NCBI GenBank assembly: GCA_942492995.1
Contig: OW818653.1
Location: 1,140,001-1,172,000 of the forward strand
Source of the DNA: an uncultured Erysipelotrichaceae bacterium
GTDB lineage: Bacteria; Bacillota_I; Bacilli_A; Erysipelotrichales; Erysipelotrichaceae
Direction: 5' to 3'
DNA length: 32,000 nt
Shown here: positions 6,301 to 29,790 of the stretch, piece by piece
How positions within the stretch are numbered: the stretch's first letter is position 1
Layout: every line of letters starts with the position of its first letter
The notes under the pieces: generated by a model
Database searches by the model: none
What the model was told of the DNA's origin: nothing
The model's input: the letters and a program-made list of their open reading frames with translations, nothing else
Made by a program: the position numbers and the translations under genes

Positions 6301-7351
6301 TTTTCTTAAGTAATAAATCTGAATCAAAGCTATGCAATAAGGCTTCATCTTGAGTGATGAGGTCTTTTTTTAATAGATCCAACAACATAGAATCCATACT
6401 AATCATTCCTTCAGAACTTGAAGATGCGATTGTGTTTTTTAATTGGTGTGTTTTAGCTTCACGTATTTGATTACGAACCGCTAGACTGTTGGTCATTACT
6501 TCAAAGACCGGTGCTAATTCACCATTCTTTAAGTGAATAAGTTGTTGAGATATTACTGCTTCAAGAACCATCGATAATTGAAGACGAATTTGTTGTTGCT
6601 GGGATGCTGGAAATACATCCACAATTCGATCAACCGTGTTAGCTGCTCCAAGCGTATGCAATGTCGAAAAGACGAGATGTCCAGTTTCCGCTGCTGTTAT
6701 CGCTAATGAGATTGTTTCTAAGTCACGCATTTCACTAATAAACAATACATTCGGTGCTTGTCTTAGTGCTGATTTAAGCGCTGAAGAACTTGAATCACAA
6801 TCACTTCCAACTTCTCTTTGTGTGACGATACTCTTCTGATGACGGTGAAGATATTCGATTGGATCTTCGATTGTCACAATATGACCTGAACGATTCTTAT
6901 TAATTAAATCTAGGATGACTGCTAAGGTTGATGATTTACCCGCACCTGCTGGGCCACTAATGATAACCAATCCTTTAGTAAGTTCAGAGAAACGTGTTAT
7001 TTCAGTAGGAATACCCAAATCATTCGCAGTAGGAATATCAAACTGTACAAGACGAATAACTGCCGCAAGTGAATTACGTTGATGATATACATTTACTCTT
7101 AATCGTGCTAAATGAGCTAAGGAAAATGAAAAATCATCATCTCCTTTTTGGTCTAAACGTTCCATATTACGATTACCAGCAAGTCGATATAGTTCATCCA
7201 CTACCATATGACAATGATCAGGACCTAACACTTCATTGTCTATACGTGAAACATTATTTTTTACTTTAAATGCGATGGGTGAACCAGCTACGAAAAATAT
7301 ATCAGACGCATCCAGTTCCACAGCTTTTCTAGCAATCTCTTGAATATTCAT
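6290..7351 (-). CDS. pilT: PilT-type (retraction-type) type IV pilus ATPase
   Basis: It is colinear with P. aeruginosa PilT: MNIQEIARKAVELDASDIFF, Walker A GPAGAGKSST, IEDPIE, ALRQAPNVLFISEMRD, His box TGHLVFSTLHT, and AVRNQIREAKTHQL (the AIRNLIRE motif). I set the start at ATG 7351, 5 nt after a GGAGG at 7361-7357. The upstream stop is at 7353-7355. Confidence 0.9.
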   Translation of the reverse strand: MNIQEIARKAVELDASDIFFVAGSPIAFKVKNNVSRIDNEVLGPDHCHMVVDELYRLAGNRNMERLDQKGDDDFSFSLAHLARLRVNVYHQRNSLAAVIRLVQFDIPTANDLGIPTEITRFSELTKGLVIISGPAGAGKSSTLAVILDLINKNRSGHIVTIEDPIEYLHRHQKSIVTQREVGSDCDSSSSALKSALRQAPNVLFISEMRDLETISLAITAAETGHLVFSTLHTLGAANTVDRIVDVFPASQQQQIRLQLSMVLEAVISQQLIHLKNGELAPVFEVMTNSLAVRNQIREAKTHQLKNTIASSSSEGMISMDSMLLDLLKKDLITQDEALLHSFDSDLLLKKIKS

Positions 7352-10920: not shown

Positions 10921-13900
10921 TTATAATCTAATTAATGTTTCGAATGAATCATCGATACCTTCAGGTATTGTTGCTGAATGAATAACTTTACCATTTAATT
11001 GGAAGTTAACAGTAACGCCACCACAATGTTTCGCTAAACGTTTGAAGAATTCGATTTCGATTGTTTGAACTTCAACTAAGTCTTTATCACTTAATTCCAC
11101 AACCATTGTCTTTTCATCTGGTTTAGCTAAACGTCTACGAACTACTTTCTGATTATTTGCTTTATCTGTTAAGATGTATTTCATATTAGGTCTTAAGAAC
11201 GCTAGTAACCATAATAGTAATCCAGCAAGTAGAGCTAGTAACCACCATAACCAGTCGTTATTCACGGCTGCTAGAGGTGTTTCAGGTTCTACAATAATAA
11301 TTTCTTCTGTTACATCTATTGTGATTTCTCCAATATTTGAATCATCTGTTCCATCATTTGCGATGAAAGTGAAACTATCTGTACCTTCGAATCCATCATT
11401 TGGAGTATATGTAAATGTTCCATCAGGATTGAATACGATTGTGCCATTTGTAGGATCAGTCACTAAACTAAATGTTAATGCGTCTCCATCTGGATCTGTA
11501 CCAGTTGCAGCACCATCGACAGGTTCTTCAAATGGAGTAGATAATGTATCATCTACAACAACTGGAGCACCATTAGGAGCTGGTGGAGGAGGAAGTGTTG
11601 TTACAGTAATTGTTACTGTAGCATTCGAAGTGTGAACACCGTCGAATACTTCAAATAAGAAACTATCACTGGTAGTAGCACCACCATTATGCGTATAACT
11701 AAATGTACCATCTACGTTTACAACTACACTACCGTTTGCTGTACCTGATAATAAACTAAAGCTTAATGGAGCTCCTTCAGGATCACTACCAGTTAATGTT
11801 CCACCCACAGTTCCACCTGTTAATACAGTTAGAGCTTGAGCAAATGCGACTGGAGGAAGATTGACTACTGGAGCCGCCAATACAGTTACAGTAACTGTTG
11901 CGGTAGAAGTTAGTTGACCATCTGTAACACTGAATACGAATGTATCGCTAAGTGTAGCAGAACCGTTATGTGTATACGTATATTCGCCTGTTGGGCTAAC
12001 AGTTGCTGTACCGTTAGTTGCAGGAGTTAATAAACTAAATACTAATGTATCTGCAGGAACATCCAAATCACTAGCAGTAACTAAACCATTACTTGAACCA
12101 GCATTCGGAACGATGAAGGCTAATGGATTTGCAACAGGAGGATCATTTACAGGTGTAACATCTATTACAACTGTAACGACATTCGAGTCTAGTAATCCGT
12201 CAGATACAAGGTAATCAAAGGAATCTAAACCAACATAGTTTTCATTTGGTGTGTAGGTAAACGAACCATCCACATTGAATAATAATGAACCAAATAACGT
12301 ACTTGTTTGAATACTTGGAGTTAATGAATCACCATCAACATCAGAATCATTTATCAAGACACCAGGAGCAGCGATAACTAATGCTGTATCTTCAGGTGTA
12401 TCATAATTGTCACCTACAGCAACTGGAGCATCATTAATTGGGTTAACTGTAATTGTTACAGTAGCGTAAGCTCTTAACTTACCATCACTAACGCCAAACA
12501 TGAAGCTATCTGGACCATGATAATCAGCATCTGGTGTATATGTACGACTTGCGCCAGTACCACTTAATGTTCCATGTAATGGAGCTTCAGTAATACCATA
12601 AATCAACGAATCGCCATCAACATCACTAGCTACAAAGTTAATTAATATTGGAGTATCTTCATCTGTAATAACTTCATCATCTTCAGCTACTGGACGATCA
12701 TTTAACGGAGTAACATCGATTGTGATTGTAGCAGATGCACGATAGAAGCCATCACTTAATGCGAATGTAAAGCTATCAGGACCAGTATAATTCAAGTCCG
12801 GAGTATATGTACGATTTGCACCAGTTCCAGTTAATACACCGTGTGCAGGACCTGTTAAGATACCAAACACTAATGTACTACCTTCAGTATCACTACCTGT
12901 TAAAGTAATAGGAAGTGGTGTTTCTTCTGGAGTTGTCAAATCTTGAGGATCAGCGATAGGACGATCATTAACAGCAGTAACAGTAATTGTTACAACTGCA
13001 GTATCAGTTTTTTCGCCATCACTCACTTCAAATGTAAAGCTATCAGGACCAAAGTAATTTGCGTCTGGAGTATATGTACGGTTTTCACCAGTACCACTTA
13101 ATACACCATGTAATGGACCTGTTTCAATATCGAATGTTAATGTTGTGCCTTCTGGATCACTACCCGTTAATGTAATTGGTAATGGAATATCTTCAGGCGT
13201 ATTTAGAGTTTGAGGATCTGCATCAGGAGCGTCATTGAAATCTAACACTGTAATTGAAACTGTTGCAGGAGCACTAAATGTTACACCACCATCATCACTG
13301 ACTCTGAATGTAAAGCTATCTGAACTTGTTTCACTTCCATCATGTACGTATTCAAATACGCCTAATCCATTTAAATCAATTGTTCCATTTGCTGGAGAAC
13401 CAACTAATTCGAATGTTAATGCATCGCCATCATCATCTTGACCTGTTACTGATCCATTGTATGTTCCACCTTCAAGTACATCGAAAGCTTTTGGATTAGC
13501 GACAGGATTATCTTCTTCTGAAGTAATATTTAATGTGACTAATGCGGTAGCAGTTCCACCATTTCCATCGGTTATACGATAGACAAATGAATCTGTACCA
13601 TGGAAATTAGCATATGGAGTATATGTGAACGAGCCGTCTGGATTTAAAACTAAGACTCCATTAACTGGTTCTGATCCAATTACTAATGAAACACTTAAGC
13701 CATTATTTTCAACATCTGAATCATTAGATTTAACACCAGGTGCTGCAACAACTAATTGAATATCTTCAGTTGTAGTATATTCATCTGGATTTGCGATTGG
13801 TAAATCGTTTATTGGATTTACTGTTACAAATACTGTAGCAATACTTCCACCATTAATTGTATATGTAAACTGATCTGGTCCAAAGTAATCAGCAGTTGGA

Positions 13901-15423
13901 GTGTACTTAATTGTACCATCAAGATTTAAAACTGCTGTTCCATGAGCTGGAGAACCAACTAATGTAACCATTAAAGGACCGCTATCGATATCTGTATCAT
14001 TCGCTATTACATTAATGTCAATTTCAACATCTTCATCAGTAGTAGCAACATCATTTACTGCAACTGGAGCATCATCGATTGGATTAACAGTTACGGTAAC
14101 TGTAGCAACACTTCCACCATTCAATGTATATGTGAATGTGTCAACTCCAACGAAGTTTGCGTTTGGTGTGTACTTGATTGTACCATTAGGGTTTTCAACT
14201 GCTGTTCCATTAGATGGAGAAGTAACACTTGTAACTTCTTTTAAACCTGCATCGATATCTGTATCATTTAATAATACGTCGATATCAATAGCAACTTCTT
14301 CATCAGTTGAAGTAACATCATCTACAGCAACTGGTAAATCATCTAAATTTGCTACATTTATTGTAATTGTTGCATATGCAGAATTTGCATATCCATCATT
14401 TACTCTAAATGTGAATGAATCTGAACCAAAGAAATTTAAATTAGGTGTATACGTCAAATTAGGTAACGTTCCACTTAGCACACCATTTGCTGGTGTACCA
14501 ACATCGACAAAGCTAATAACTTGCGAAACATCCGCATCAGATCCAGTTAAAGTAATTCCAATTGGAACTTCTTCATTTGTATTTAATGTTTGAGGATCCG
14601 CAACTGGAATAGCATTTATTGTATTAACTAAAACAGCTGCACTTGACGTTAATATTGTTCCACCTGATGTTGTACCTGTAGCTGTATTATTTACAGTGAC
14701 AGGATCCATAGATGACTGATCAATATTATGAACATAAGTGTAAATTGCTGGAAGTGTAAATACACGTGGACTTGATAGATCCATTGGATCAGTTACTGTC
14801 AAAGTACCATCTGCATTTATAACATCTGGATTCTTAACATTTATTGCTGGAGTTAAAATACTTAATCCAGTATTTGTAAGATCTGTTTCACCAAATATTT
14901 GAATTGTAATCTTGAATGGTGAAATTGTTTCTAAAACTGCTTCATTGATTGTAAACGATGTTGTATAGGTTTCAGTAATTGTTTGATCCGCAACATCAGT
15001 AAAAGTATCAATAACAGCTTCCGAATAGATTGGACTTCCACTTGGATGAGCAATTAGTGATCTAACACTAAAGTCAGCAGGTGTTGTTCCAGTTAATTCA
15101 TACGTAACTGTGTACGTCAAACTAAATGTAATGTCTGTAGTTTGAGATACATCGACCGTATAAGTTACATTCTCATTTCCATCGACTGCTAAATTAAGTA
15201 CTGGTTTATCAACTGTTTTGATTATACCCCAGTATGTGTTAGCAATAACACTACCCGTAACATCTGGTTTGTTTACACCAACTGCTAATGATGTAGGTGT
15301 TAATACTGTTGGTAAGACACCTCCATCGCCTGGTTTAGCATAAACGTTTAAAAATGGCGTTCGATCGACAAGTAATAGAGCTATTATCAATATTCTCGTC
15401 AATCGGTTGAGTAAGTTCTTCAT
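10921..15423 (-). CDS. giant (1500 aa) surface repeat protein/adhesin: signal peptide, N-terminal beta-rich region, 12 cadherin-like (tandem-95/VCBS-type) repeats, C-terminal TM anchor, cytoplasmic tail
   Basis: A GGGAGG Shine-Dalgarno sequence at 15436-15431 precedes the start. The Sec signal is MKNLLNRLTRILIIALLLV...VYA/KPG. The repeats carry the motifs [AL]PVA.D, D.D.D/DGD and G.F.YTP...F.G.DSF.Y...D. The TM helix is WLWWLLALLAGLLLWLLAFL. There is no LPXTG. Confidence 0.9.
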   Translation of the reverse strand: MKNLLNRLTRILIIALLLVDRTPFLNVYAKPGDGGVLPTVLTPTSLAVGVNKPDVTGSVIANTYWGIIKTVDKPVLNLAVDGNENVTYTVDVSQTTDITFSLTYTVTYELTGTTPADFSVRSLIAHPSGSPIYSEAVIDTFTDVADQTITETYTTSFTINEAVLETISPFKITIQIFGETDLTNTGLSILTPAINVKNPDVINADGTLTVTDPMDLSSPRVFTLPAIYTYVHNIDQSSMDPVTVNNTATGTTSGGTILTSSAAVLVNTINAIPVADPQTLNTNEEVPIGITLTGSDADVSQVISFVDVGTPANGVLSGTLPNLTYTPNLNFFGSDSFTFRVNDGYANSAYATITINVANLDDLPVAVDDVTSTDEEVAIDIDVLLNDTDIDAGLKEVTSVTSPSNGTAVENPNGTIKYTPNANFVGVDTFTYTLNGGSVATVTVTVNPIDDAPVAVNDVATTDEDVEIDINVIANDTDIDSGPLMVTLVGSPAHGTAVLNLDGTIKYTPTADYFGPDQFTYTINGGSIATVFVTVNPINDLPIANPDEYTTTEDIQLVVAAPGVKSNDSDVENNGLSVSLVIGSEPVNGVLVLNPDGSFTYTPYANFHGTDSFVYRITDGNGGTATALVTLNITSEEDNPVANPKAFDVLEGGTYNGSVTGQDDDGDALTFELVGSPANGTIDLNGLGVFEYVHDGSETSSDSFTFRVSDDGGVTFSAPATVSITVLDFNDAPDADPQTLNTPEDIPLPITLTGSDPEGTTLTFDIETGPLHGVLSGTGENRTYTPDANYFGPDSFTFEVSDGEKTDTAVVTITVTAVNDRPIADPQDLTTPEETPLPITLTGSDTEGSTLVFGILTGPAHGVLTGTGANRTYTPDLNYTGPDSFTFALSDGFYRASATITIDVTPLNDRPVAEDDEVITDEDTPILINFVASDVDGDSLIYGITEAPLHGTLSGTGASRTYTPDADYHGPDSFMFGVSDGKLRAYATVTITVNPINDAPVAVGDNYDTPEDTALVIAAPGVLINDSDVDGDSLTPSIQTSTLFGSLLFNVDGSFTYTPNENYVGLDSFDYLVSDGLLDSNVVTVVIDVTPVNDPPVANPLAFIVPNAGSSNGLVTASDLDVPADTLVFSLLTPATNGTATVSPTGEYTYTHNGSATLSDTFVFSVTDGQLTSTATVTVTVLAAPVVNLPPVAFAQALTVLTGGTVGGTLTGSDPEGAPLSFSLLSGTANGSVVVNVDGTFSYTHNGGATTSDSFLFEVFDGVHTSNATVTITVTTLPPPPAPNGAPVVVDDTLSTPFEEPVDGAATGTDPDGDALTFSLVTDPTNGTIVFNPDGTFTYTPNDGFEGTDSFTFIANDGTDDSNIGEITIDVTEEIIIVEPETPLAAVNNDWLWWLLALLAGLLLWLLAFLRPNMKYILTDKANNQKVVRRRLAKPDEKTMVVELSDKDLVEVQTIEIEFFKRLAKHCGGVTVNFQLNGKVIHSATIPEGIDDSFETLIRL
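11308..14610 (-). repeat. 12 tandem coding repeats of 87-98 codons (~260-295 bp period) inside the giant gene
   Basis: In the translation, repeat starts fall at aa 272, 363, 452, 541, 639, 732, 821, 910, 999, 1095, 1189 and 1286, and the array ends near aa 1372. Recurrent DNA strings such as GGACCA(A/G)..TAAT..GC.TCTGGAGTATATGTACG are visible in several units. Confidence 0.85.
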
Positions 15424-15695: not shown

Positions 15696-15778
15696 AAACA
15701 TATGTAATAATAAATAATGATAAAACAGATTTAATTAATAATTATTATCAATATTATTACCCGTTTTATTGTAAACAT

Positions 15779-17395: not shown

Positions 17396-18157
17396 CTAAG
17401 CTGCTGTCCAACCTCCATCGATAGTCATTGTTGAGCCAGTGATCATAGATGCTTCATCAGCACATAAGAACTTAACTACATTAGCAACTTCGGAAGGTTG
17501 TAATAATTTCTTAACAGCTGCTTTTTGAAGCATGATCTTAGAAACTACTTCTTCTTCAGAAATTCCATGAGTTGCTGCTTGAGCAGCGATTTGTTTGTCT
17601 ACTAGTGGAGTTTGCACATAAGATGGGCAAATAGAGTTAACAGTGATACCGAATGGTCCACCTTCTAGAGCGGTAGTCTTTGTTAAACCAGCTAAGCCGT
17701 GTTTAGCAGAAACATAAGCGGATTTAAATTCTGAAGCAACTAATCCATGGATAGAGTTTAAGTTAATAACACGTCCCCATTTTTGTGCTTTCATATAAGG
17801 CCATGAATAACGAGTAAGCAAGAATGGAGCAGTTAACATTAAGTTAATCATGAAGTCCCATTTGTCTTCAGGGAAGTCTTCAATTGGTGAAACTGTTTGA
17901 ATACCAGCCACGTTAACAAGAATATCAACTTTTTCAAATAGACGAACTGCAACATCGACTACATTTTTGCAATCTTCGCGTTTGCTTAGATCTGCAACAA
18001 CATATTCAGAACCTAATCTCTCACAATGTGATTTTAGTTGAGCTTCATTAATGTCAACCATTACCACCTTTGCTTGTTCAGCCGCAAACATTTCTGCTAT
18101 AGCTAAACCAATACCACTGGCGGCACCTGTAACGATGCACACTTTGTCTTTTAACAT
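17396..18157 (-). CDS. bdhA: 3-hydroxybutyrate dehydrogenase (short-chain dehydrogenase/reductase)
   Basis: It has the TGAASGIGLAIA Rossmann motif, the catalytic YVSAKHG (YxxxK), and a C-terminal block ICPSYVQTPLVDKQIAAQA...G that closely parallels known BdhA enzymes. The ato/thiolase context supports the call. Confidence 0.8.
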   Translation of the reverse strand: MLKDKVCIVTGAASGIGLAIAEMFAAEQAKVVMVDINEAQLKSHCERLGSEYVVADLSKREDCKNVVDVAVRLFEKVDILVNVAGIQTVSPIEDFPEDKWDFMINLMLTAPFLLTRYSWPYMKAQKWGRVINLNSIHGLVASEFKSAYVSAKHGLAGLTKTTALEGGPFGITVNSICPSYVQTPLVDKQIAAQAATHGISEEEVVSKIMLQKAAVKKLLQPSEVANVVKFLCADEASMITGSTMTIDGGWTAA

Positions 18158-18214
18158 TATTGTCCTCCTTATGATGTACTTTGTTAAAAGTATATGATTA
18201 ATAGATTGTATCTA

Positions 18215-18874
18215 TTAAACTTCGATGTTCTTTAAGTCTTCTGCGATAATCAACTTAGGTTCAGTTGCTGCTTGGACTTCTTCTACTGTAAACTCAGGAT
18301 TAATTTCTTTTAATACTAATCCCTTATCTGTAACTTCTATAACACCCATTTCAGTCACAATTAGATTTACTTCATTTGCGGCTGTTAATGGTAAGTTACA
18401 TTCATTAAGAATCTTTAAACTACCTTTAGCGGTATGTTCCATTGCGACGATTACTTTTCGTGCTCCGGATATTAAATCCATTGCACCACCCATACCTGGA
18501 ACCATTTTCCCTGGGATCATATAGTTCGCAATGTTACCCTTTTCATCAACTTGAAGTGCCCCTAGAACAGTTAAGTCTACATGGCCTCCTCTGATGATTC
18601 CAAACGATGTAGCACTATCGAAGAAGATACCACCCTTTTTAATTGTGACAGGCTTACCACCAGCATTAGTTATATAAGGATCAATATTCTCTTCACTTGG
18701 TGTAGGACCTAAACCAACGAAACCATTTTCAGATTGGAACATAACTGCTTTGTCATGTGGAACATAGTTCGCAACGAGTGTTGGTAGTCCAATGCCTAAA
18801 TTAACAACATCTCCATCATGTAGTTCTTTCGCAACACGTTGAGCAATATATTCTTGTACAAATTGCTTATCCAT
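18215..18874 (-). CDS. atoA: acetate/3-oxoacid CoA-transferase, subunit B
   Basis: It is colinear with E. coli AtoA: IA.RVA.EL.DGDVVNLGIGLPT.VANY, the catalytic SENG motif (FQSENGFVGLGP), and PGKMVPGMGGAMDL. Confidence 0.9.
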   Translation of the reverse strand: MDKQFVQEYIAQRVAKELHDGDVVNLGIGLPTLVANYVPHDKAVMFQSENGFVGLGPTPSEENIDPYITNAGGKPVTIKKGGIFFDSATSFGIIRGGHVDLTVLGALQVDEKGNIANYMIPGKMVPGMGGAMDLISGARKVIVAMEHTAKGSLKILNECNLPLTAANEVNLIVTEMGVIEVTDKGLVLKEINPEFTVEEVQAATEPKLIIAEDLKNIEV

Positions 18875-18875
18875 T

Positions 18876-19526
18876 TTAGCGCGTTCCTTTCACGATGTAA
18901 TTCACAAACACACCTGGTGTTTCTGCAATGTCTGGATTTAATGCTTCTTCAGAGTATTCAAGCACTTCAACAATTGTTTTAGTAGCTGCGCCAGCCATTA
19001 CTGAGTTAAAGTTTTGAGCTGCACCGTGATAAACTAAATTACCATATTTATCGGCTTTTTGAGCGAAGATTAATGCGAAATCTGCTTTTAATGGTTTTTC
19101 TAATAAATATTTAGTTCCATCAATCTCAATTACATCTTTTCCTTCTTGAACTTTTGTACCAACTCCAGTTCTTGTAAGGAATCCACCAAGTCCATAACAT
19201 GCACAACGAATTTGTTCAGCAAGTGTACCTTGTGGGGTTAGAATAACTTCAGTCTCGCCTTCTAACATTTGTCTTCCAGTTTCTTTGTTTGTTCCAATGT
19301 GTGAGGCAATTACTTTACTGAATTGTTTATTCACAACAAGTTTTCCAACTCCACTATCGACAAATCCACTATCATTACAGATCAGAGTAAGGTTCTTAGT
19401 GCCTTTTGCGACTAATGCGTCAATTAGGTTAAGAGGTGCTCCAACACTAAGAAACCCTCCGATCATCAAAACATCACCATCTTTTATTTGCGAAACTGCT
19501 TCTTCAATACTAATTAGTTTATTCAT
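18876..19526 (-). CDS. atoD: acetate/3-oxoacid CoA-transferase, subunit A
   Basis: I set the start at ATG 19526 (MNKLISIEEAVSQIKDGDVLMIGGF), 8 nt after the thiolase stop. It is colinear with AtoD/ScoA. The longer ORF-track start would overlap the thiolase gene. Confidence 0.9.
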   Translation of the reverse strand: MNKLISIEEAVSQIKDGDVLMIGGFLSVGAPLNLIDALVAKGTKNLTLICNDSGFVDSGVGKLVVNKQFSKVIASHIGTNKETGRQMLEGETEVILTPQGTLAEQIRCACYGLGGFLTRTGVGTKVQEGKDVIEIDGTKYLLEKPLKADFALIFAQKADKYGNLVYHGAAQNFNSVMAGAATKTIVEVLEYSEEALNPDIAETPGVFVNYIVKGTR

Positions 19527-19534
19527 AGAGTTTC

Positions 19535-20713
19535 CTATCTTTCGACAATCATCGATATTCCTTGACCACCGCCGATACAAAGTGTAGCTAAACCTGTTTT
19601 CGCATCACGTTTGATCATTTCATGAATCAAGCTAACTAGGATGCGTGCTCCACTTGCGCCAATTGGATGTCCAAGGGCAATTGCACCACCGTTTACGTTA
19701 ACAATATCGGTATTTAAATTTAAATCCTTAACAACACTTAATGCTTGTGCTGCGAATGCTTCATTTGCTTCTACTAAATCTAAATCATTTACTGTCATAC
19801 CAGCTTTAGCTAAAGCCTTGAGAGTTGAAGGAATTGGTCCACAACCCATAATCTCAGGAGCTACACCAGCTGACGCATATGACTTAACAACAACTAATGG
19901 TTTTAAACCTAATTCAATTGCTTTTTCTTCACTCATAACGACGAATGCGGCTGCACCATCATTAATTCCTGAAGAGTTCGCTGCTGTAACAACGCCATCT
20001 TTTTTAAATGCTGGACGTAATTTAGCTAAGCCTTCTAATGTTGTATTCGGTTTAGGATATTCATCTGTATCAACAACAACCGCATCCCCTTTTTTCTGAG
20101 GGATAACAATTGGAACGATCTCATCTTTAAACTTGCCATCCGCGATTGCTTTAACAGCACGGTTTTGACTTGTTACAGCGAACTGATCTAATTGTTCACG
20201 TGTAAATCCATATTTTTCTACAATATTCTCAGCTGTAATTCCCATATGATAATTATTAAATACATCCGTTAAACCATCAAATACCATCGTATCGACGAGC
20301 GCCGCATTACCCATACGTTGACCCCAACGTGCACTAGGTACAACATACGCAGATTGACTCATATTTTCTGTTCCACCAGCAACGATTATTTCTGCATCGC
20401 CATTGGAAATCGCTTGAACAGCAAGCGCAACTGTCTTTAAACCAGATCCACAAACTTTATTTACTGTGAATGATGATACTTCAATTGGAAGACCTGCATG
20501 AATTGATACTTGACGTGCTACGTTTTGGCCTAAACCAGCTTGAAGTACATTACCAAAAATTAATTCATCAACTTGACTTGCCTGTATATTAGCTCTACTT
20601 ATGGCTTCTTTAACGACTGCTGTACCTAATTCAACAGCAGATACATCTTTGAATACCCCACCAAATGAACCAATTGCGGTACGAACGGCTGAAACGATCA
20701 CAACATTTCTCAT
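19535..20713 (-). CDS. atoB: acetyl-CoA C-acetyltransferase (thiolase II)
   Basis: I set the start at ATG 20713 ([19 protein letters not shown]), which is preceded by AAGGAGA. It has the active-site blocks [17 protein letters not shown] and CIGGGQG. The gene symbol is assigned by context with atoDA; the protein could equally be named thl. Confidence 0.9.
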
Positions 20714-20804
20714 TTTATTCTCCTTTTTCACAAAATTATATTTACTAAAGCGCTTACACTATTATTTAACTCTATCGTCAATTGTTTGTGAAATACTAGA
20801 ATTT

Positions 20805-20861: not shown

Positions 20862-21788
20862 ATGGATATCTCACAACTTAAGTATTTTGTATGTATTGTT
20901 GAAAGCGATTACAATCTTTCAAACGCATCAAAGAAGTTACACATCTCGCAACCAGCATTGACTCAATACATTAGAAAGTTCGAAGATGAAGAAGGAATTG
21001 AGCTTTTTACACGCTTAAGTGGCCGCTTAAATGGACTTACAGTAAGTGGTGAAAATTTCTATTCAAATGCGAAAATAGTAATTGAACAGTACAATACACT
21101 TTATAAAGAATTACACGAAAATTCGAGCAGTATTAAAGGAACCGTCACAATCGGAATTCCTCCTTTAGTGTTAACTGTTCTATTTACTGAGTATCTTTCT
21201 AAGATAATTCGATTGAATCCTACTATCAGATTTAACATTGTCGAAGAAGGTGCGTATGAACTTCGTCGAAAACTTCTTTTACATGAAATTGATTTTGTCG
21301 TTATCTTACAACCAACTAATTTGAACAACCAAATCTATGCGGAAGATATTATTCATAGAGATCAATTAACTGCATTTATGTGTGAAAAAAACGTACTCGC
21401 TAAAAAAGAAAAGATTACTTGGGCTGATTTAAATCATGCGAGTTTAGCTATTTTTAATGAAACTTTTATGATTCATCACCAATTAATTAAGAAATTTGAA
21501 AACGAAGATATAAAACCTAATATTGTATTATCATCATCACTATGGGATTTCTTACTCGAATCAACGCGGTCGTCTGATTATATTACAATCCTACCTGCTC
21601 CTATTCACAATCATATTCGTAGTGATGGAATTATCGAGAAAATATTTGATAATCCTATTTACTGGCATGTCGTATTAGCTTATCCAATTAAATCCCATTA
21701 CAACAGAATTGAGCGATATGTTCGCAAGAGTATGTTGGATTTCTTTGTGGATGGTAAAGAAATTAAACCGATAAATCAGAGCGAATAA
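20862..21788 (+). CDS. LysR family transcriptional regulator
   Basis: The N-terminal HTH (MDISQLKYFVCIVE......AS..LHISQPALTQYIRKFE.E.G..LF.R) and the ~300-aa length are typical of the family. It is divergent from the catabolic operon. Confidence 0.9.
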   Translation: MDISQLKYFVCIVESDYNLSNASKKLHISQPALTQYIRKFEDEEGIELFTRLSGRLNGLTVSGENFYSNAKIVIEQYNTLYKELHENSSSIKGTVTIGIPPLVLTVLFTEYLSKIIRLNPTIRFNIVEEGAYELRRKLLLHEIDFVVILQPTNLNNQIYAEDIIHRDQLTAFMCEKNVLAKKEKITWADLNHASLAIFNETFMIHHQLIKKFENEDIKPNIVLSSSLWDFLLESTRSSDYITILPAPIHNHIRSDGIIEKIFDNPIYWHVVLAYPIKSHYNRIERYVRKSMLDFFVDGKEIKPINQSE

Positions 21789-21807: not shown

Positions 21808-22791
21808 ATGGATTACTCACACTTTACTAAAGAAACGCTTATACTACGAATCAAACAGCTTGAAAGATTAAACTTTGAGTTATTAAAGGAAAATGATGAT
21901 GACTTATCGTATGCTTGGACAGGTAGTCTTGGTAAATGGTATCTAGATTTTTCATCTGGATACGCTGTATTTAATGCACAAAAAGTACTCGCATTAGGTT
22001 ACACTATGGACGAAATTCCTCATCCTACACCTTACACTTTTTTCACTTCCTTAATTCATCCAGATGATTATGATAAAACAATGAAAAGCATGTTAGATAA
22101 TATGCACAATATATCCCCAGTTTACGAAATTGAATATCGCATTCGCGGAAAAGATGGAACCTATAAGTGGTTTTATGATCGAGGTCGTGTTACTCAACGT
22201 GATGAAGAAGGACATGCGACATTTGCGGCAGGAATCGTATTTGATATTACTAATAAAAAGGAAGATGAATTACGATTGTTGAAAGAAAGCCAGGACTTCA
22301 AACGAAGTTCATTGACCGATCCTTTAACAAATATTATGAATCGACGCGCTATTTTAGATGAGTTATCCAAACGTATGAATAAACATATTTATAATTTTGA
22401 ACATCTATCCATCTTAATGTTGGATATCGATGATTTTAAATTTATTAACGATCAATATGGTCATATAAAAGGTGATGAAGTACTCGTAAAAGTCACCCAA
22501 ATAATTATTGAAGTAATTCGTGGAATTGATACCGTTGGGCGCTATGGTGGTGAAGAGTTCTTAGTTATATTTCCGAACACTGACTTACAAAACGCACATA
22601 ATGCGAGTGAACGTATTAGGATGAAAATTGAGAATACAGAGTTTGCTGGAATCGGTAAAATCACTGTTAGTGGTGGTTATACTGAGTATATAAATGAGTC
22701 GATTGAAGAATTAATTGATATCGCCGACCAAAACTTATATCAAGCAAAAAGAACTGGTAAAAATAAAGTAATAGGTAATTTTCTTAAGTGA
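21808..22791 (+). CDS. PAS-GGDEF diguanylate cyclase (intact GGEEF active site and RxxD I-site)
   Basis: It has a coiled N-terminus and a PAS/PAC domain (YRIRGKDGTYKWFYDRG....G...AAGIVFDIT). The GGDEF domain reads DPLTNIMNRR...DIDDFKFINDQYGH..GD. The I-site RGID lies 5 residues before GGEEF. There are no TM segments. Confidence 0.9.
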   Translation: MDYSHFTKETLILRIKQLERLNFELLKENDDDLSYAWTGSLGKWYLDFSSGYAVFNAQKVLALGYTMDEIPHPTPYTFFTSLIHPDDYDKTMKSMLDNMHNISPVYEIEYRIRGKDGTYKWFYDRGRVTQRDEEGHATFAAGIVFDITNKKEDELRLLKESQDFKRSSLTDPLTNIMNRRAILDELSKRMNKHIYNFEHLSILMLDIDDFKFINDQYGHIKGDEVLVKVTQIIIEVIRGIDTVGRYGGEEFLVIFPNTDLQNAHNASERIRMKIENTEFAGIGKITVSGGYTEYINESIEELIDIADQNLYQAKRTGKNKVIGNFLK

Positions 22792-24061: not shown

Positions 24062-25006
24062 ATGAAAACGAATAAAATTTCTATTATTGGGTCAGGTTTT
24101 GTAGGCTCCACAACCGCTTTTGCGATTATGGACGCTGGTCTTGTAAGTGACATTGTACTGGTTGATATTAATCATGATAAATCAGAAGCTGAGGCAATGG
24201 ATTTAACGCATGGAGCCGCATTTGTCAAAACCGTTAATATAACTGCTGGTATATTAGAAGATACTGTTGGATCTGATTTAATTATTATTACTGCTGGTAT
24301 TGGTCCAAAACCAGGTGAATCTCGTTTAGATATTTTAAATAAAAACATCCCAATATTTAAGGATATCGTGCCTAAACTTGCTCAATATAGTCCTGACGCA
24401 CTATTCTTAGTTGTTTCTAATCCTGTCGATATATTAACGTATATTACATATAAATTCTCTGGATTTCCTTCGCATCGAGTTATTGGATCTGGTACAGTTC
24501 TAGATACATCACGTTTTAAATCGATCTTATCTAAACAATTCAGTATTGATGCTCGTAATATTCATGCCTATATTATTGGTGAACATGGTGATTCCGAAAT
24601 AGCGGCTTGGAGTACAATCAAGATAGCTGGAATGAGTATCGATGAATATTGTAAGATTGATAAATTAGATTACAATGAAGAATTTAAAACATTTATTACG
24701 GACGAAGTTAAACACGCTGCATACGAAATCATAAATCGCAAAGGATACACAAACTATGCGGTCGCATTGGCAGTACGTAGAATCACTGAAGCGATTCTAG
24801 GTGATGAACAATCGATATTAACTGTTAGTGGTCTGCAAAATGGAGAAAGCAGTTTAAATGATGTATATATTGCGATGCCTAGTATTGTTGGTCGTAATGG
24901 AATACGTAAAATACTACCAATTCCACTTTCAGATGATGAATTTAAAAAGTTAAATGATTCTGCGAATTTATTAAAAGAGATCATTAAGAACTCTAATCTA
25001 GATTAA
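24062..25006 (+). CDS. ldh: L-lactate dehydrogenase
   Basis: It has [16 protein letters not shown] (NAD binding), [17 protein letters not shown] and IGEHGDSE (catalytic His block). The length is 314 aa. Confidence 0.9.
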
Positions 25007-25019
25007 TAATCAAAATAAA

Positions 25020-25049
25020 AGGACATTATTGCGAATGCAATGATGTCCT
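25020..25049. terminator. bidirectional terminator between ldh and the heliorhodopsin gene
   Basis: AGGACATTATTGC-gaat-GCAATGATGTCCT forms a 13-bp hairpin flanked by AAAATAAAA and TATTTATT. Confidence 0.8.
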
Positions 25050-25054
25050 ATTTA

Positions 25055-25834
25055 TTATGGTTGCATTGCTCCAAATAGTACGAGCCACGCTAATATAGAT
25101 TTAGCAGCTAAACTTAAGATAATATAAACTCTTTCACCATATAAATAATCTTTCCATTTGCCAACTTTAAGGTACTGAAGAATCATATTAATTGGGAACG
25201 TATTGAATGCGACGAAATATGAAACAATAATTGCCCAAACAAACCAAGGTACCATATCAAAGTTACCAGTTCCGGTCATGTAAAACAGAATTGCAGCCCA
25301 AGGTGCGATACCAGCAATTGATCCCCAAATAAATGGTAACCAATTAATCTTACCTTTTTCAGCACTAGAATTTAAGAGTTCCATATCCAAACCAAATAGA
25401 TTCATTGATGCATTAACTACGAATATTAACAACAAGGATACAACATCATAGATACCGAATAAAGTCGCAATAAGTACAATCATAATGGATGAACTTAATG
25501 CATACTCATACCAACGATATGGATTAATTCCCTTACGTAAGTTCGCTTCATATTTTTTCGAATTTAACGCAATAAATCCATGTGCTAACGCAGAAATAAA
25601 TAAGAATGATGCGACAAGTAATCCAAACGGTAAATCAAATAATTCTTTACTAACTACTTCAAGAGATCGTGTTTCAACATTGAATTGTTGATAGAATTGA
25701 ATAATTGTTGGTTGAAATTCCGAGATTTTTTGAATTACTGTTGTTGCCAAAAATACCATTGCGACTGCTTGTATAAAATGAATCCCACCCATGATAAGAT
25801 TAAAATTCTTTAATTTTTTAAATACATCCTGCAT
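25055..25834 (-). CDS. heliorhodopsin (7-TM retinal protein, inverted topology family)
   Basis: It is colinear with heliorhodopsin 48C12 as I recall it: NFN.I.G..H..Q (His23 equivalent), SALAHG (His80 equivalent), RWYEYALSSSIMIVLIA (counterion Glu), VNASMNLFG, GIAPW, and GERVYIILSLAAKSILAW with the Schiff-base Lys (K245, codon 25100-25102). Confidence 0.85.
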   Translation of the reverse strand: MQDVFKKLKNFNLIMGGIHFIQAVAMVFLATTVIQKISEFQPTIIQFYQQFNVETRSLEVVSKELFDLPFGLLVASFLFISALAHGFIALNSKKYEANLRKGINPYRWYEYALSSSIMIVLIATLFGIYDVVSLLLIFVVNASMNLFGLDMELLNSSAEKGKINWLPFIWGSIAGIAPWAAILFYMTGTGNFDMVPWFVWAIIVSYFVAFNTFPINMILQYLKVGKWKDYLYGERVYIILSLAAKSILAWLVLFGAMQP

Positions 25835-25920
25835 TATAGTCTCCTTTTATGTAATGTTATATATCACATGTATTTTTATATGATATAGATAATCATTATC
25901 AGTATAGTAAATGTTAGCTT

Positions 25921-25952
25921 AAATAAAAACAAGTTATATACTCATAACTTGT
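25921..25952 (-). terminator. intrinsic terminator after the aldo/keto reductase gene
   Basis: On the minus strand, ACAAGTTAT-gagtat-ATAACTTGT is followed by TTTTATTT. Confidence 0.7.
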
Positions 25953-25960
25953 TAAGTTTG

Positions 25961-27085
25961 TTAATATTTTGGCACTTCTAATGTAACACGCTTTAAATCT
26001 CTAATGATTTGTATACTTTGTGGGCATAATGGTTCACACGCACCACATTCTTGACACATATCCGAACGCTCAGACGCATTCATATCCTTCCAATATCTTC
26101 TAATCGCTTGAGGCGCATTCCCATAGATCGAGAAATCATTCCAAATTTTAAAGTTTCTAGGAATATTTACACCATGTGGGCAAGGCATACAGTATTCACA
26201 CCCTGTACAACCATTCTTTGTACGTGATTGGATAATTTGTGTTACTTGATTAACACATTCCATTTCTTCTTTACTTAATGCCGAAAAATTATTAAATGTT
26301 TCGCAGTTATCAAGTACATGTTCCATGGTACTCATACCACTTAAGATAACTTTTACATTTGGATGGCTCGCTACCCAACGTAATGCCCAAGAGGACAATG
26401 ATTTATCTGGATGAACAGCTTTAAAGTATTGCGCAATATCGTCAGGTAAATTTGCTAGATTACCACCTTTAATCGGTTCCATAATAATCAAAGGAATTCC
26501 TAATTTTTCTGCTAATGCATATCCTTTATCACCAGCTTGGATATTTGTATCAATATAGTTATATTGGATCTGACAGAAATCCCATTTACGAAACGTAATA
26601 ATCTTTTCAAACACATTAAACTCATCATGAAATGAAAATCCTAGATATTTAATCTTTCCTTCTTTTTGAAGTGCTTCAACTTCTTCTAATACACCTTGTT
26701 TAAGAAGTGTTTCCCATTTCTCATTATCTAATGCATGGAGTAAATAGAAATCTACATAATCAACTTGTAACTTAAGTAATTGTTCATTAAATAGAACACG
26801 TACATCTTCTTTTTTATATACTTTCCATACCGGTAGTTTTGTCGCAATTGTGAATTGATTACGATTATATTTCTTCAAAACTTTACCAACAAACGATTCA
26901 CTTTCACCACCATGATATGGATATGCAGTATCAATGTATGTCACGCCTTCAGAAATCGCTTTGTCGATCATTGATTCTGATTGTATTTCGTCAATCATTC
27001 CATTCGCTAATGTTGGAAATCGCATACATCCAAATCCTAATAATGAAGTATTAATTTTTAAATTTTCAAAATAACTTGTTTTCAT
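25961..27085 (-). CDS. aldo/keto reductase fused to a C-terminal 2x[4Fe-4S] ferredoxin-like domain
   Basis: I set the start at ATG 27085 (MKTSYFENL), which is preceded by AAAGAGG. The AKR blocks are LGFGCMRFP, IDTAY.YHGG.SE and KLP.W. The C-terminus has CTGCEYCMPCP and CQECGACEPLCP, both CxxCxxCxxxCP motifs. Confidence 0.8.
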   Translation of the reverse strand: MKTSYFENLKINTSLLGFGCMRFPTLANGMIDEIQSESMIDKAISEGVTYIDTAYPYHGGESESFVGKVLKKYNRNQFTIATKLPVWKVYKKEDVRVLFNEQLLKLQVDYVDFYLLHALDNEKWETLLKQGVLEEVEALQKEGKIKYLGFSFHDEFNVFEKIITFRKWDFCQIQYNYIDTNIQAGDKGYALAEKLGIPLIIMEPIKGGNLANLPDDIAQYFKAVHPDKSLSSWALRWVASHPNVKVILSGMSTMEHVLDNCETFNNFSALSKEEMECVNQVTQIIQSRTKNGCTGCEYCMPCPHGVNIPRNFKIWNDFSIYGNAPQAIRRYWKDMNASERSDMCQECGACEPLCPQSIQIIRDLKRVTLEVPKY

Positions 27086-27156
27086 GCATCGAACCTCTTT
27101 ATAATTAATTGAAACGCACAAACTTGTTATAGTCAAGGATGTTATGAGGTAATTGA

Positions 27157-27837: not shown

Positions 27838-29790
27838 TTATCGATAAGAGAAATAGTCATTTTGTAATATACGGTACGAAATATCCGAATTTTGTTTAAC
27901 TATCTTACTAATTCGAATAATTTCTTCATTTGTTAAAGTATTATTTATATCAAACGGACTAAAACGAGCACTTGATACAGAGTATGCGCCATATTGATTA
28001 TTCCAACTTAATGAAGCGTATGGAACAACTCTTTCTTGGTTTGTATCAAACATATCAACCCCAAAATAGAATCTTGGATCATAATCTAAATCAAATAGAT
28101 TCGCAATCGTTGGGACTAAATCAAATGTCGAAGAAACAGTAGATAAGCGTTCACCTTTAACTTCTGAATTATAGATAATCATAGGTAACATGTTAATGTT
28201 AAACCCTTTAGCACGTTCATTGTATGGATCACCATAATCCAAGAATACTTGTTTATCTGTTTTTAATGGGAAATGATCTCCATACATAATAATAACTGTA
28301 TCTTCTAATATCCCTTGAGCATCTAGTAAATTAATCAGAGTTTCAATTGAACGATCAAGCTCCATTGCCTTGGACTTATAACGTTGTACATTAAGTGGTA
28401 AATCAGGATACAATGCATTGATTTCATCTAAATAACGATTCCCTAATGTACTATCGATATCATAGGGAAAATGAGTTGATGAAGTAATTATGTACGAGAA
28501 GAAGCGTTGTTTATCGCCATACACTTTAAATGCTTCTTCCATTAAATTCACATCACTTGGCCAACCTTTTAATGTCTTAATCTCTAAATCATCGTTGTTA
28601 TAAAAGTACGTACTTCCTAATTTTTGATGTAATTCAGTCCGTTGGTAAAATTTATCAGAATAATTATGATACGAACTACTAAAGTATCCTGCATCATTAA
28701 ATAGATTGAAAATACTTCTGTTGTACGTATTGTTTGTGTATGTATTAGGTGAACATATCCCCGTTCTTGGTACAAGTGATGTTAATCCTATAAACTCGCT
28801 CTCACCAGTTGCGCATGAATATTGTGGCGAAAAGAAATGATCAAAGAAGAAACCATCCTGTGTGAGTTTATATAGTGTTGGAGTTAATTGCTCATCAATA
28901 CCCATATAATCAAACGCCTCTACCATGATATACACAAGATTCTTATCTTTGAATATTCCTGTATATTCGTTTTTAGGAGTAATCGTTCGATTCATTAAAT
29001 ACTCATCAATAACTTTTAATGTCTCATTTGATTCGTTATTCATCTTCTCAATCCAAACTGTATCATCAATAATTCGCTCATAACTTGGCTCACTAATAAC
29101 TACTACTTCTTCAGGAATAATCTCAATTATTTCTTCAGTCTCTTTAGTCCCAAGTAATAGATTTCGTGTATCTCGTATGATAAATCTCGATAAACCTAAT
29201 TGATTCAAACTTAGATCTGGAATGTAAGGATTATTATATAGTTCCACCACTTTTATTGGTAATGATTCTTGATTAAACCAATTTAATGATAGTAAACCTA
29301 CACCGTGCAAAGATAAAACTAACACAAAAGAAATACCAAATTTTATCCAGTTTGTTTTTGACTTATCATTTGTACGATTTATAACACTAAAAATTGTGAA
29401 TACAATTGCTGGCACAAACACTGTCATATTGACTAATTTTATATATTGCGCAAAATCATTTGCGTAATCATTTACACGAGATGCCATTGAGAAGAATAGT
29501 CTAAATGAGTAATTCGCATTCATATATAAACGATAACTAACTTGAGTTAACGCAATAAACGCTAAAAAGTACAGACTAAAATTCAGTATGATTAATTGAA
29601 ATTTCTTGGGTAATAATTGTGAAACGAGAAAAATCCCAAGTGAAACACTTAGGCTAAATATTAGTATCCGTACGACATGAGAATCATAAAGATTAAACTG
29701 ATTAAACCATCGGAATAAAAGTTCAATAGCTATAAAACACAAAACGTAAAGAAAACCGAGAAAAGTTTGAGACTGTTTAAATTTATTCAT
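27838..29790 (-). CDS. ltaS: LTA synthase (LtaS) family sulfatase-fold membrane protein
   Basis: About five N-terminal TM helices are followed by an extracellular sulfatase-like domain (MVEAFD, CATGESEF with the nucleophile-region motif, SSTHFPY, GDHFP). The length is 650 aa. The gene symbol is given at family level only. Confidence 0.8.
   Translation of the reverse strand: MNKFKQSQTFLGFLYVLCFIAIELLFRWFNQFNLYDSHVVRILIFSLSVSLGIFLVSQLLPKKFQLIILNFSLYFLAFIALTQVSYRLYMNANYSFRLFFSMASRVNDYANDFAQYIKLVNMTVFVPAIVFTIFSVINRTNDKSKTNWIKFGISFVLVLSLHGVGLLSLNWFNQESLPIKVVELYNNPYIPDLSLNQLGLSRFIIRDTRNLLLGTKETEEIIEIIPEEVVVISEPSYERIIDDTVWIEKMNNESNETLKVIDEYLMNRTITPKNEYTGIFKDKNLVYIMVEAFDYMGIDEQLTPTLYKLTQDGFFFDHFFSPQYSCATGESEFIGLTSLVPRTGICSPNTYTNNTYNRSIFNLFNDAGYFSSSYHNYSDKFYQRTELHQKLGSTYFYNNDDLEIKTLKGWPSDVNLMEEAFKVYGDKQRFFSYIITSSTHFPYDIDSTLGNRYLDEINALYPDLPLNVQRYKSKAMELDRSIETLINLLDAQGILEDTVIIMYGDHFPLKTDKQVFLDYGDPYNERAKGFNINMLPMIIYNSEVKGERLSTVSSTFDLVPTIANLFDLDYDPRFYFGVDMFDTNQERVVPYASLSWNNQYGAYSVSSARFSPFDINNTLTNEEIIRISKIVKQNSDISYRILQNDYFSYR

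Follow-up and report, generated by a model that had tools for sequence, protein, structure and literature searches.

The window analysed here is a stretch of 32,000 nucleotides from an uncultured Erysipelotrichaceae bacterium (contig OW818653.1, positions 1,140,001 to 1,172,000), and coordinates given without a locus label refer to it. On its minus strand, at 25055-25834, lies a 780-bp open reading frame (ORF) that starts with ATG and encodes a heliorhodopsin (HeR) of 259 amino acids; a ribosome-binding site, AAGGAG, can be read from the sequence on the same strand, 6 nt upstream of the start codon (25841-25846), and its GGAG is retained in five of the seven relatives aligned. The assignment to the family, which the original prediction had made, is borne out by profile searches. 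The protein covers the whole Pfam heliorhodopsin model PF18761 (profile positions 1-242 of 242, E 1.5e-93, 313 bits against a cut-off of 26.7) and exceeds the cut-off of the NCBIfam equivalog NF038020, 'heliorhodopsin HeR', with 288 bits against 100. Among proteins of solved structure, its best sequence matches are TaHeR (6IS6, E 1.4e-56) and 48C12 (6SU3, E 1.8e-48). Public data contain more than 6,000 relatives, and an exact-protein look-up returned no record of an identical protein. The ORF is a canonical bacterial heliorhodopsin whose nearest relatives come from Erysipelotrichaceae metagenome-assembled genomes (MAGs). As such it is a routine member of a well-known family, organised in the usual way, and the NCBI annotation pipeline can be expected to name it 'heliorhodopsin HeR' automatically, so that the gene call itself matters little. 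What goes beyond routine annotation is solely a putative Fur-like operator in front of the gene, and the presence or absence of neighbouring genes among close relatives.

The family-defining residues of 48C12, as listed in PMC7049168, were mapped by HMMER pairwise alignment, and TaHeR was aligned as well. The six blocks quoted when the gene was first noticed are all found: NFNLIMGGIHFIQ at residues 10-22, SALAHG at 81-86, RWYEYALSSSIMIVLIA at 107-123, VNASM at 140-144, GIAPW at 175-179 and GERVYIILSLAAKSILAW at 233-250. The retinal Schiff-base lysine is K245, in transmembrane helix 7 (TM7, residues 230-255). Its codon falls exactly where it had been placed (25100-25102, minus strand), and it aligns without gaps to K241 of 48C12 and K238 of TaHeR. 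The counterion is E110 (25505-25507, minus strand) in TM3 (107-125), aligned to E107 of 48C12; both residues are invariant among 40 homologues. The two histidines, H19 in TM1 (25778-25780) and H85 in TM2 (25580-25582), also encoded on the minus strand, are equivalent to H23 and H80 of 48C12. The serines that stabilise counterion and lysine are kept (S237, S111 and S76 of 48C12 correspond to S241, S114 and S81), as is the remainder of the polar cavity, in which N101, Y108, N16, E230, R104 and Y92 of 48C12 become N104, Y111, N12, E234, R107 and Y95. Conservation thus extends to all 13 residues that make up the Schiff-base region and polar cavity; E149 of 48C12 corresponds to E152, and the hydrophobic barrier residues L8, L99 and L231 are likewise present. 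The fenestration or carotenoid-site motif is intact too, with the aromatic pair F168/F210, the small residues S172/P214, and G175; this motif was proposed in a docking-based preprint (10.1101/2025.11.27.691015).

An AlphaFold2 model computed from an alignment of 40 homologues (mean pLDDT 77.6, pTM 0.71) has seven helices, at 2-34, 70-100, 107-125, 131-156, 166-189, 197-221 and 230-255, and a beta-hairpin at 43-67 (strands 43-52 and 57-67) that forms the AB loop. The model puts E110 into helix 3 and K245 into helix 7, so that neither of them is shifted out of TM3 or TM7. Compared by Foldseek, it reaches TM-scores of 0.77-0.86 to structures of TaHeR and 48C12 (6IS6, 7CLJ, 6SU3, 6SU4), against at most 0.64 for type-1 rhodopsins. 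Lysines and arginines number 12 in the N-terminus and the BC, DE and FG loops (4, 2 and 3 in the three loops, respectively) versus 3 in the AB, CD and EF loops and the C-terminus. An inverted topology, with a cytoplasmic N-terminus, would fit this positive-inside count.

The gene is intact and under strong purifying selection, with a constraint comparable to that of core metabolic genes, including those for L-lactate dehydrogenase (ldh) and thiolase. We compared it within a close clade of loci (L081-L090) whose HeRs are 86-98% identical to that of the window, L090 being one additional close relative found by a metagenome scan. The ratio of non-synonymous to synonymous divergence (dN/dS) is 0.019 at a dS of 0.59 against L081 (98% amino acid identity) and 0.050 at a dS of 1.68 against L082 (88%). 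In the same two comparisons it is 0.009 and 0.017 for ldh, 0.042 and 0.058 for the upstream reductase gene described below, and 0.111 for a PAS-GGDEF gene further away. HeR and its neighbours show similar dS and have therefore been inherited vertically together, which rules out a recent horizontal transfer of HeR within the clade.

The immediate neighbours leave HeR on its own. Upstream, on the same strand, is a gene for an aldo-keto reductase (AKR) fused to a 4Fe-4S dicluster domain (25961-27085, minus strand; Pfam Aldo_ket_red 1.6e-40, Fer4_9), with a likely ATG start at 27085, although its longest ORF runs from a TTG at 27136. Downstream is the convergent ldh (24062-25006, plus strand; Pfam Ldh_1_N and Ldh_1_C, NCBIfam L-LDH 406 bits). 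Between HeR and ldh, a terminator scan and folding energies place a bidirectional intrinsic terminator at 25014-25056, with a core stem (25020-25049) of 13 bp that begins five bases past the HeR stop codon. It folds with -16.9 kcal/mol (z -4.8) and a UUUUAUUUU tail on the HeR strand, and with -21.6 kcal/mol (z -7.9) on the ldh strand; the stem GGACAT...ATGTCC is retained in L081 and L082, with different loops. The 126-bp spacer upstream of HeR holds another hairpin on the minus strand (25919-25953; stem 25928-25953, T-tract 25919-25927), which is AT-rich and weak (-8.9 kcal/mol, z -2.1) and is followed by UUUUUAUUU. It is retained in relatives, in L090 with a compensatory swap of a T-A to an A-T pair. 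The original prediction had taken the two hairpins, with the upstream one placed at 25921-25952, as HeR's own terminators. Both are real, but the upstream one stands past the stop codon of the AKR gene and hence terminates that gene, insulating HeR from read-through, while the downstream one, on which ldh converges, is common to HeR and ldh.

That the gene is transcribed alone, as had been proposed, is nevertheless very probable. The flanking hairpins and a conserved upstream intergenic block point to it, and so do two natural variants: in L086 and L087 an opposite-strand gene for a 163-aa SWIM-like protein sits between the AKR gene and HeR (L086 3251-3742), and L090 has no ldh downstream of HeR (L090 2686-2711). 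No operon shared with a partner can be drawn here, given a terminator in the upstream gap and a convergent gene downstream. This stand-alone organisation is the family norm and no distinguishing feature. When 68 related loci showing both HeR neighbours were scored for a same-strand neighbour at less than 60 bp, only nine had one and 59 had no operon-like neighbour; in a published survey, co-transcription was predicted for 38.6% of HeR genes and 61.4% stood alone (PMC11109279). Alignments of the spacer suggest a candidate sigma-70-type promoter on the minus strand (25875-25902), with -35 CTGATA (25897-25902), a spacer of 16 nt and -10 TATAAA (25875-25880); TATCATATAA is invariant in eight loci of these promoter-region alignments. 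A consensus scan did not pick this candidate, whose final -10 base is A. The TATAAT that the scan did predict, overlapping the HeR start codon, was rejected as the HeR promoter; the hit counts of the scan were no better than in shuffles.

The candidate promoter is overlapped by a palindrome that resembles a Fur box (25882-25900; GATATAGATAATCATTATC on the plus strand). It agrees at 17 of 19 positions with the classic 19-bp consensus, GATAATGATAATCATTATC, and an embedded site of the 7-1-7 form (25887-25901) agrees at 14 of 15 with the B. subtilis consensus, TGATAATnATTATCA; in motif form the Fur-type box reads ATAATGATWATCTATATCA. Allowing up to three mismatches, the 19-mer occurs once in the 32 kb, where 0.09 sites are expected. 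Among 20,000 dinucleotide shuffles of the 126-bp, 79%-AT spacer, none came within two mismatches of the 19-mer and 15 came within one mismatch of the 7-1-7 form; the match is far better than chance would give. The block ATAATGAT[T/A]ATCTATATCA is invariant in six loci (the window, L081-L084 and L090), in which it is the best-conserved intergenic block, the flanking spacer being about half conserved. The palindrome lies at 4668-4686 in L081, 9937-9955 in L082, 3938-3956 in L083 and 949-967 in L084, and in L090 about 55-75 bp upstream of the HeR start at 1907. Since in L090 the block is intact despite degraded -35 and -10 hexamers, it can be argued that the block itself is under selection. Compared with known Fur boxes, the G at position 2 and the C at position 14 of the site are of the Fur type and not of the PerR type, group B relatives carry two overlapping 7-1-7 sites, and the site overlaps a candidate promoter, as repressor sites do. 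It differs from them in being confined to one genus-level clade and in having no iron-uptake gene nearby. A second 7-1-7 site resembling those of Fur and PerR, TAATAATTATTATCA, is found with one mismatch at 15736-15750 on the plus strand, just upstream of the tandem riboswitches discussed below; it is probably fortuitous, as it consists almost wholly of A and T and such sites at up to two mismatches are expected by chance.

Taken as a whole, the locus is very likely best explained as a stand-alone, canonical HeR acting as a light switch of the family type, with possible gating by a Fur-family regulator. Transcription would start in the 126-bp spacer, downstream of the AKR terminator, and stop at the terminator common to ldh. 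The protein would insert into the membrane with a cytoplasmic N-terminus, seven helices and an extracellular AB beta-hairpin. By analogy with characterised members of the family, all-trans retinal would be bound at K245, with E110 as the counterion and H19 and H85 in the proton-accepting cavity. The lack of a retinal pathway in the window, together with the intact fenestration motif (F168/F210/G175), suggests that the chromophore is probably scavenged from outside the cell. As in the bacterial HeRs characterised so far, the protein most likely would not pump ions but work as a slow-cycling light switch, and through the positive charges of its cytoplasmic loops it may alter how active a partner protein is, the gene for which shares no operon with HeR. 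Such regulatory partners have been described for other HeRs, namely glutamine synthetase (PMC9529153), a photolyase (PMC9769723) and an ABC transporter (PMC11109279). With these three cases, and with a viral HeR that transports protons (PMC9448325), the background statement of the original prediction that the role of the family is unsettled is partly out of date. Finally, in this genus, transcription may be gated by a Fur-family metalloregulator acting on the promoter palindrome.

Several observations weigh against this explanation. The Fur-like motif was picked after the sequence had been viewed. The box is degenerate in L002, L088 and L086, with three to four mismatches to the 7-1-7 form, and more distant HeR loci are without it, their best sites having at least five mismatches. 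A Pfam scan of every ORF of at least 90 aa in the 32-kb window found no gene for a Fur-family regulator. The promoter hexamers were read from alignments alone, and in L090 they are degraded. Relatives with 79% identity come from MAGs labelled HGW, which we take to mean deep groundwater, so that light sensing in situ is not guaranteed. Lastly, none of the ten classes of HeR neighbours described in PMC11109279 adjoins the gene in the Pfam scan. On balance, we regard it as possible, but rather doubtful, that the palindrome at 25882-25900 is a real Fur-family operator. Equally tentative is the proposal built on it, that in this Erysipelotrichaceae genus HeR is repressed by a Fur-family metalloregulator and made only when iron is limiting or, with a PerR-like regulator, during oxidative stress.

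Were the proposal true, it would provide the first defined transcriptional input for any heliorhodopsin, as far as the literature searched shows, in which no paper mentions heliorhodopsin along with iron limitation, a Fur box or the ferric uptake regulator. It would also offer an experimental tie of the family to iron and photo-oxidative stress, a role that has been proposed on genomic grounds (PMC8612252). More generally, such an operator would make it easy and inexpensive to test when a HeR outside any operon is expressed.

The wider neighbourhood reads, in order, LysR, PAS-GGDEF, a 90-aa ORF, DUF2089, SHOCT-like, ldh, HeR, AKR-Fer4, DUF1893, LtaS-like and acyltransferase. This order is conserved in the clade L081-L090, with losses, and below about 80% HeR identity the neighbourhoods are unrelated. 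As the original prediction had stated, the window holds no gene for retinal or carotenoid biosynthesis: the Pfam scan detected no crt, blh or brp gene and no phytoene synthase or desaturase, lycopene cyclase or carotenoid oxygenase. No gene for a photolyase, glutamine synthetase, NAD synthetase, ABC transporter, MerR, TerC, DUF2238 or DUF2177 protein is adjacent to HeR. A conserved partner gene was sought by clustering the neighbours in 80 genome loci (L001-L080) with 10-kb flanks and crude gene calls, and this candidate explanation was rejected, no neighbour family being common beyond lineage-level synteny; the largest clusters were ABC ATPases, response regulators, MarR and SDR proteins, at scattered positions. 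Further along the minus strand, a ketone-body or short-chain acyl-CoA module (17396-20731) comprises a thiolase, two CoA-transferase subunits, an SDR resembling 3-hydroxybutyrate dehydrogenase and a GntP-like permease; a LysR gene is divergent from it (20862-21788, plus strand), and the module is conserved in L082.

Two genes in this neighbourhood invite a partner hypothesis. The original prediction had suggested, and flagged as unproven, that light might act through HeR on the PAS-GGDEF cyclase (21808-22791), and through cyclic di-GMP (c-di-GMP) on a riboswitch-controlled adhesin (10921-15423, minus strand). These parts do exist: in the cyclase the GGEEF site is intact and an RxxD I-site is present, the adhesin is a 1500-aa surface protein with Big_9/cadherin repeats by Pfam, and two tandem c-di-GMP-I riboswitches precede it in its leader (Rfam RF01051; 15463-15552 and 15612-15700, minus strand; 61.5 and 63.2 bits). 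These two were the only hits of an Rfam scan of the entire window at gathering thresholds; they lie 10 kb from HeR, near which the scan gave no structured RNA. The link between the parts has almost no comparative support. In L082, L084, L086 and L090 the cyclase is found at the same place near HeR, but vertical inheritance accounts for this synteny, as the neighbours' dS is similar; the gene is read from the other strand, at a distance of four genes and 2.3 kb from HeR, and is missing from the otherwise syntenic L088 (about 6868-7001). The adhesin is not at the corresponding position in L082, where different genes follow the GntP-like permease, so that the adhesin cassette is variable. Occasional GGDEF or EAL genes near HeRs have been reported (PMC8612252), but a GGDEF gene lies within 10 kb in only nine of the 80 other loci, or about one per 93 kb; judged by estimate rather than against a genomic background, such a density is in the ordinary range for Bacillota. 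The PAS domain shows no sign of membrane association or of a LOV-type photosensor; a LOV-type PAS that would make the cyclase itself a photoreceptor was ruled out, since the PAS region lacks both an NCRFL motif and any cysteine. In the literature searched, heliorhodopsin and c-di-GMP are met together in only two papers, both incidental. In L033 (8755-9852) and L040 (3-842), both on the plus strand, HeR is immediately preceded, at 140-155 bp and on its own strand, by a multi-TM GGDEF gene, the sole arrangement we saw that would suit a membrane-level link from HeR to c-di-GMP; the two loci belong to one Christensenellaceae/Eubacteriales lineage and count as one event. Altogether, we consider the route from light to adhesion by way of this cyclase very unlikely.

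A partnership with the upstream AKR/4Fe-4S protein, either as a light-regulated redox enzyme or as a retinol/retinal oxidoreductase supplying the chromophore from scavenged retinoids, seems highly improbable as well. In all members of the clade with HeR identities of 86% or more, HeR has the AKR-Fer4 gene directly upstream on its own strand, a flavodoxin-Fer4 fusion takes the -1 position on the HeR strand in five Christensenellaceae loci (e.g. L025 9175-9957), and SDR oxidoreductases, a recurrent class of HeR neighbours (PMC11109279), flank HeR in four loci here. However, a conserved terminator and a separate promoter block part the two genes, the opposite-strand insertion separates them in L086 and L087, and their adjacency is lost below about 80% HeR identity. 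The best NCBIfam match of the AKR, methylglyoxal reductase, reaches 68 bits against a cut-off of 550, and we know of no retinoid activity in this AKR subfamily. Fe-S oxidoreductases are very common in anaerobes, which makes a chance adjacency likely; the Fe-S proteins found upstream of HeR, whether AKR-Fer4 or flavodoxin/4Fe-4S, may be a coincidence or a recurrent redox association. A different activity of the HeR itself must also be considered, that of a light-harvesting, two-antenna rhodopsin with an exogenous xanthophyll bound at the lateral fenestration, or of a proton transporter like V2HeR3. The carotenoid-site motif is present and one viral HeR has been shown to transport protons (PMC9448325), yet the antenna idea comes from the docking-based preprint mentioned above, and the bacterial HeRs tested so far do not pump (PMC11109279, PMC9769723). 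Inside, the extracellular half of the window HeR is hydrophobic like that of 48C12, whose conserved residues it shares (PMC7049168), and the protein belongs to the 48C12/TaHeR-like majority and not to the viral subfamily. We judge this last alternative to be very unlikely.

The locus makes a clean comparative case: within a single genus-level clade, HeR keeps its place and its constraint, whereas its candidate partners vary. The losses of neighbours and the insertion argue against simple guilt by association, and for any hypothesis on a partner, L086, L087, L088 and L090 provide natural controls.

The host is a low-GC (33%) monoderm. The closest HeR loci are labelled Erysipelotrichaceae or Bacillota, and the window encodes a homologue of LtaS-like lipoteichoic-acid synthases (27838-29790), in line with the reported distribution of HeRs in monoderm hosts (PMC8612252). 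A literature search for heliorhodopsin together with names in Erysipelotrich- found no paper. The subfamily to which this HeR belongs extends further: HeRs at least 68-70% identical occur across Bacillota, Chloroflexota (Dehalococcoidia, Anaerolineae), Thermotogota, Patescibacteria and others, in unrelated neighbourhoods (L001-L080). Such wide identity with unrelated neighbourhoods suggests a very strong constraint, frequent lateral transfer, or both. Some HeRs 69-76% identical to that of the window are on contigs whose depositors label them as diderm or toga-bearing phyla, a few of them megabase-sized: L050 (OY763325.1, a 3.98-Mb chromosome, Thermotogae), L045 and L053 (Thermotogaceae), L007 (an 861-kb contig, Fusobacteria), L064 (Sumerlaeota), L067 (Desulfovibrionaceae) and L054 (Verrucomicrobiota). 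These loci bear on the rule that the family is restricted to monoderms.

The known system of reference is heliorhodopsin 48C12, described by Pushkarev et al. in 2018 and represented by the structures 6SU3, 6SU4 and 6UH3. The window HeR shares 47.5% identity with it over 242 aligned columns, falls in the same length class and has TM-scores of 0.77-0.85 to it. Identity is complete at the residues of the Schiff base and the cavity (K, E, three Ser, two His, N, Y, N, E, R, Y), and the fenestration residues I176 and F207 match as well. The two differ in the length of the AB loop, in the host, an actinobacterium for 48C12 against a low-GC Bacillota member here, and at two positions: I142 of 48C12 is N145, which is common to TaHeR, and Q213 is M217, a frequent variant (PMC7049168). 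TaHeR, from the Thermoplasmatales archaeon SG8-52-1 (6IS6, 7CLJ, 7U55), is the best match among solved structures, with 44-46% identity and TM-scores of 0.79-0.86. It shares with the window HeR both N145, within an MNL motif, and the TM7 block KWK..Y..GE.VYIILSL..KS, but it is archaeal and its AB loop is seven residues shorter. In function, the closest comparison is with TfHeR, AbHeR and OcHeR, the partners of which are a photolyase, glutamine synthetase and an ABC transporter, respectively (PMC9769723, PMC9529153, PMC11109279). Their cytoplasmic loops, rich in lysine and arginine and tied to partner binding, are also found in the window HeR, and TfHeR, like it, comes from a Bacillota host. 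In those three systems, however, the partner gene shares a predicted operon with HeR, whereas the HeR of the window is insulated on both sides.

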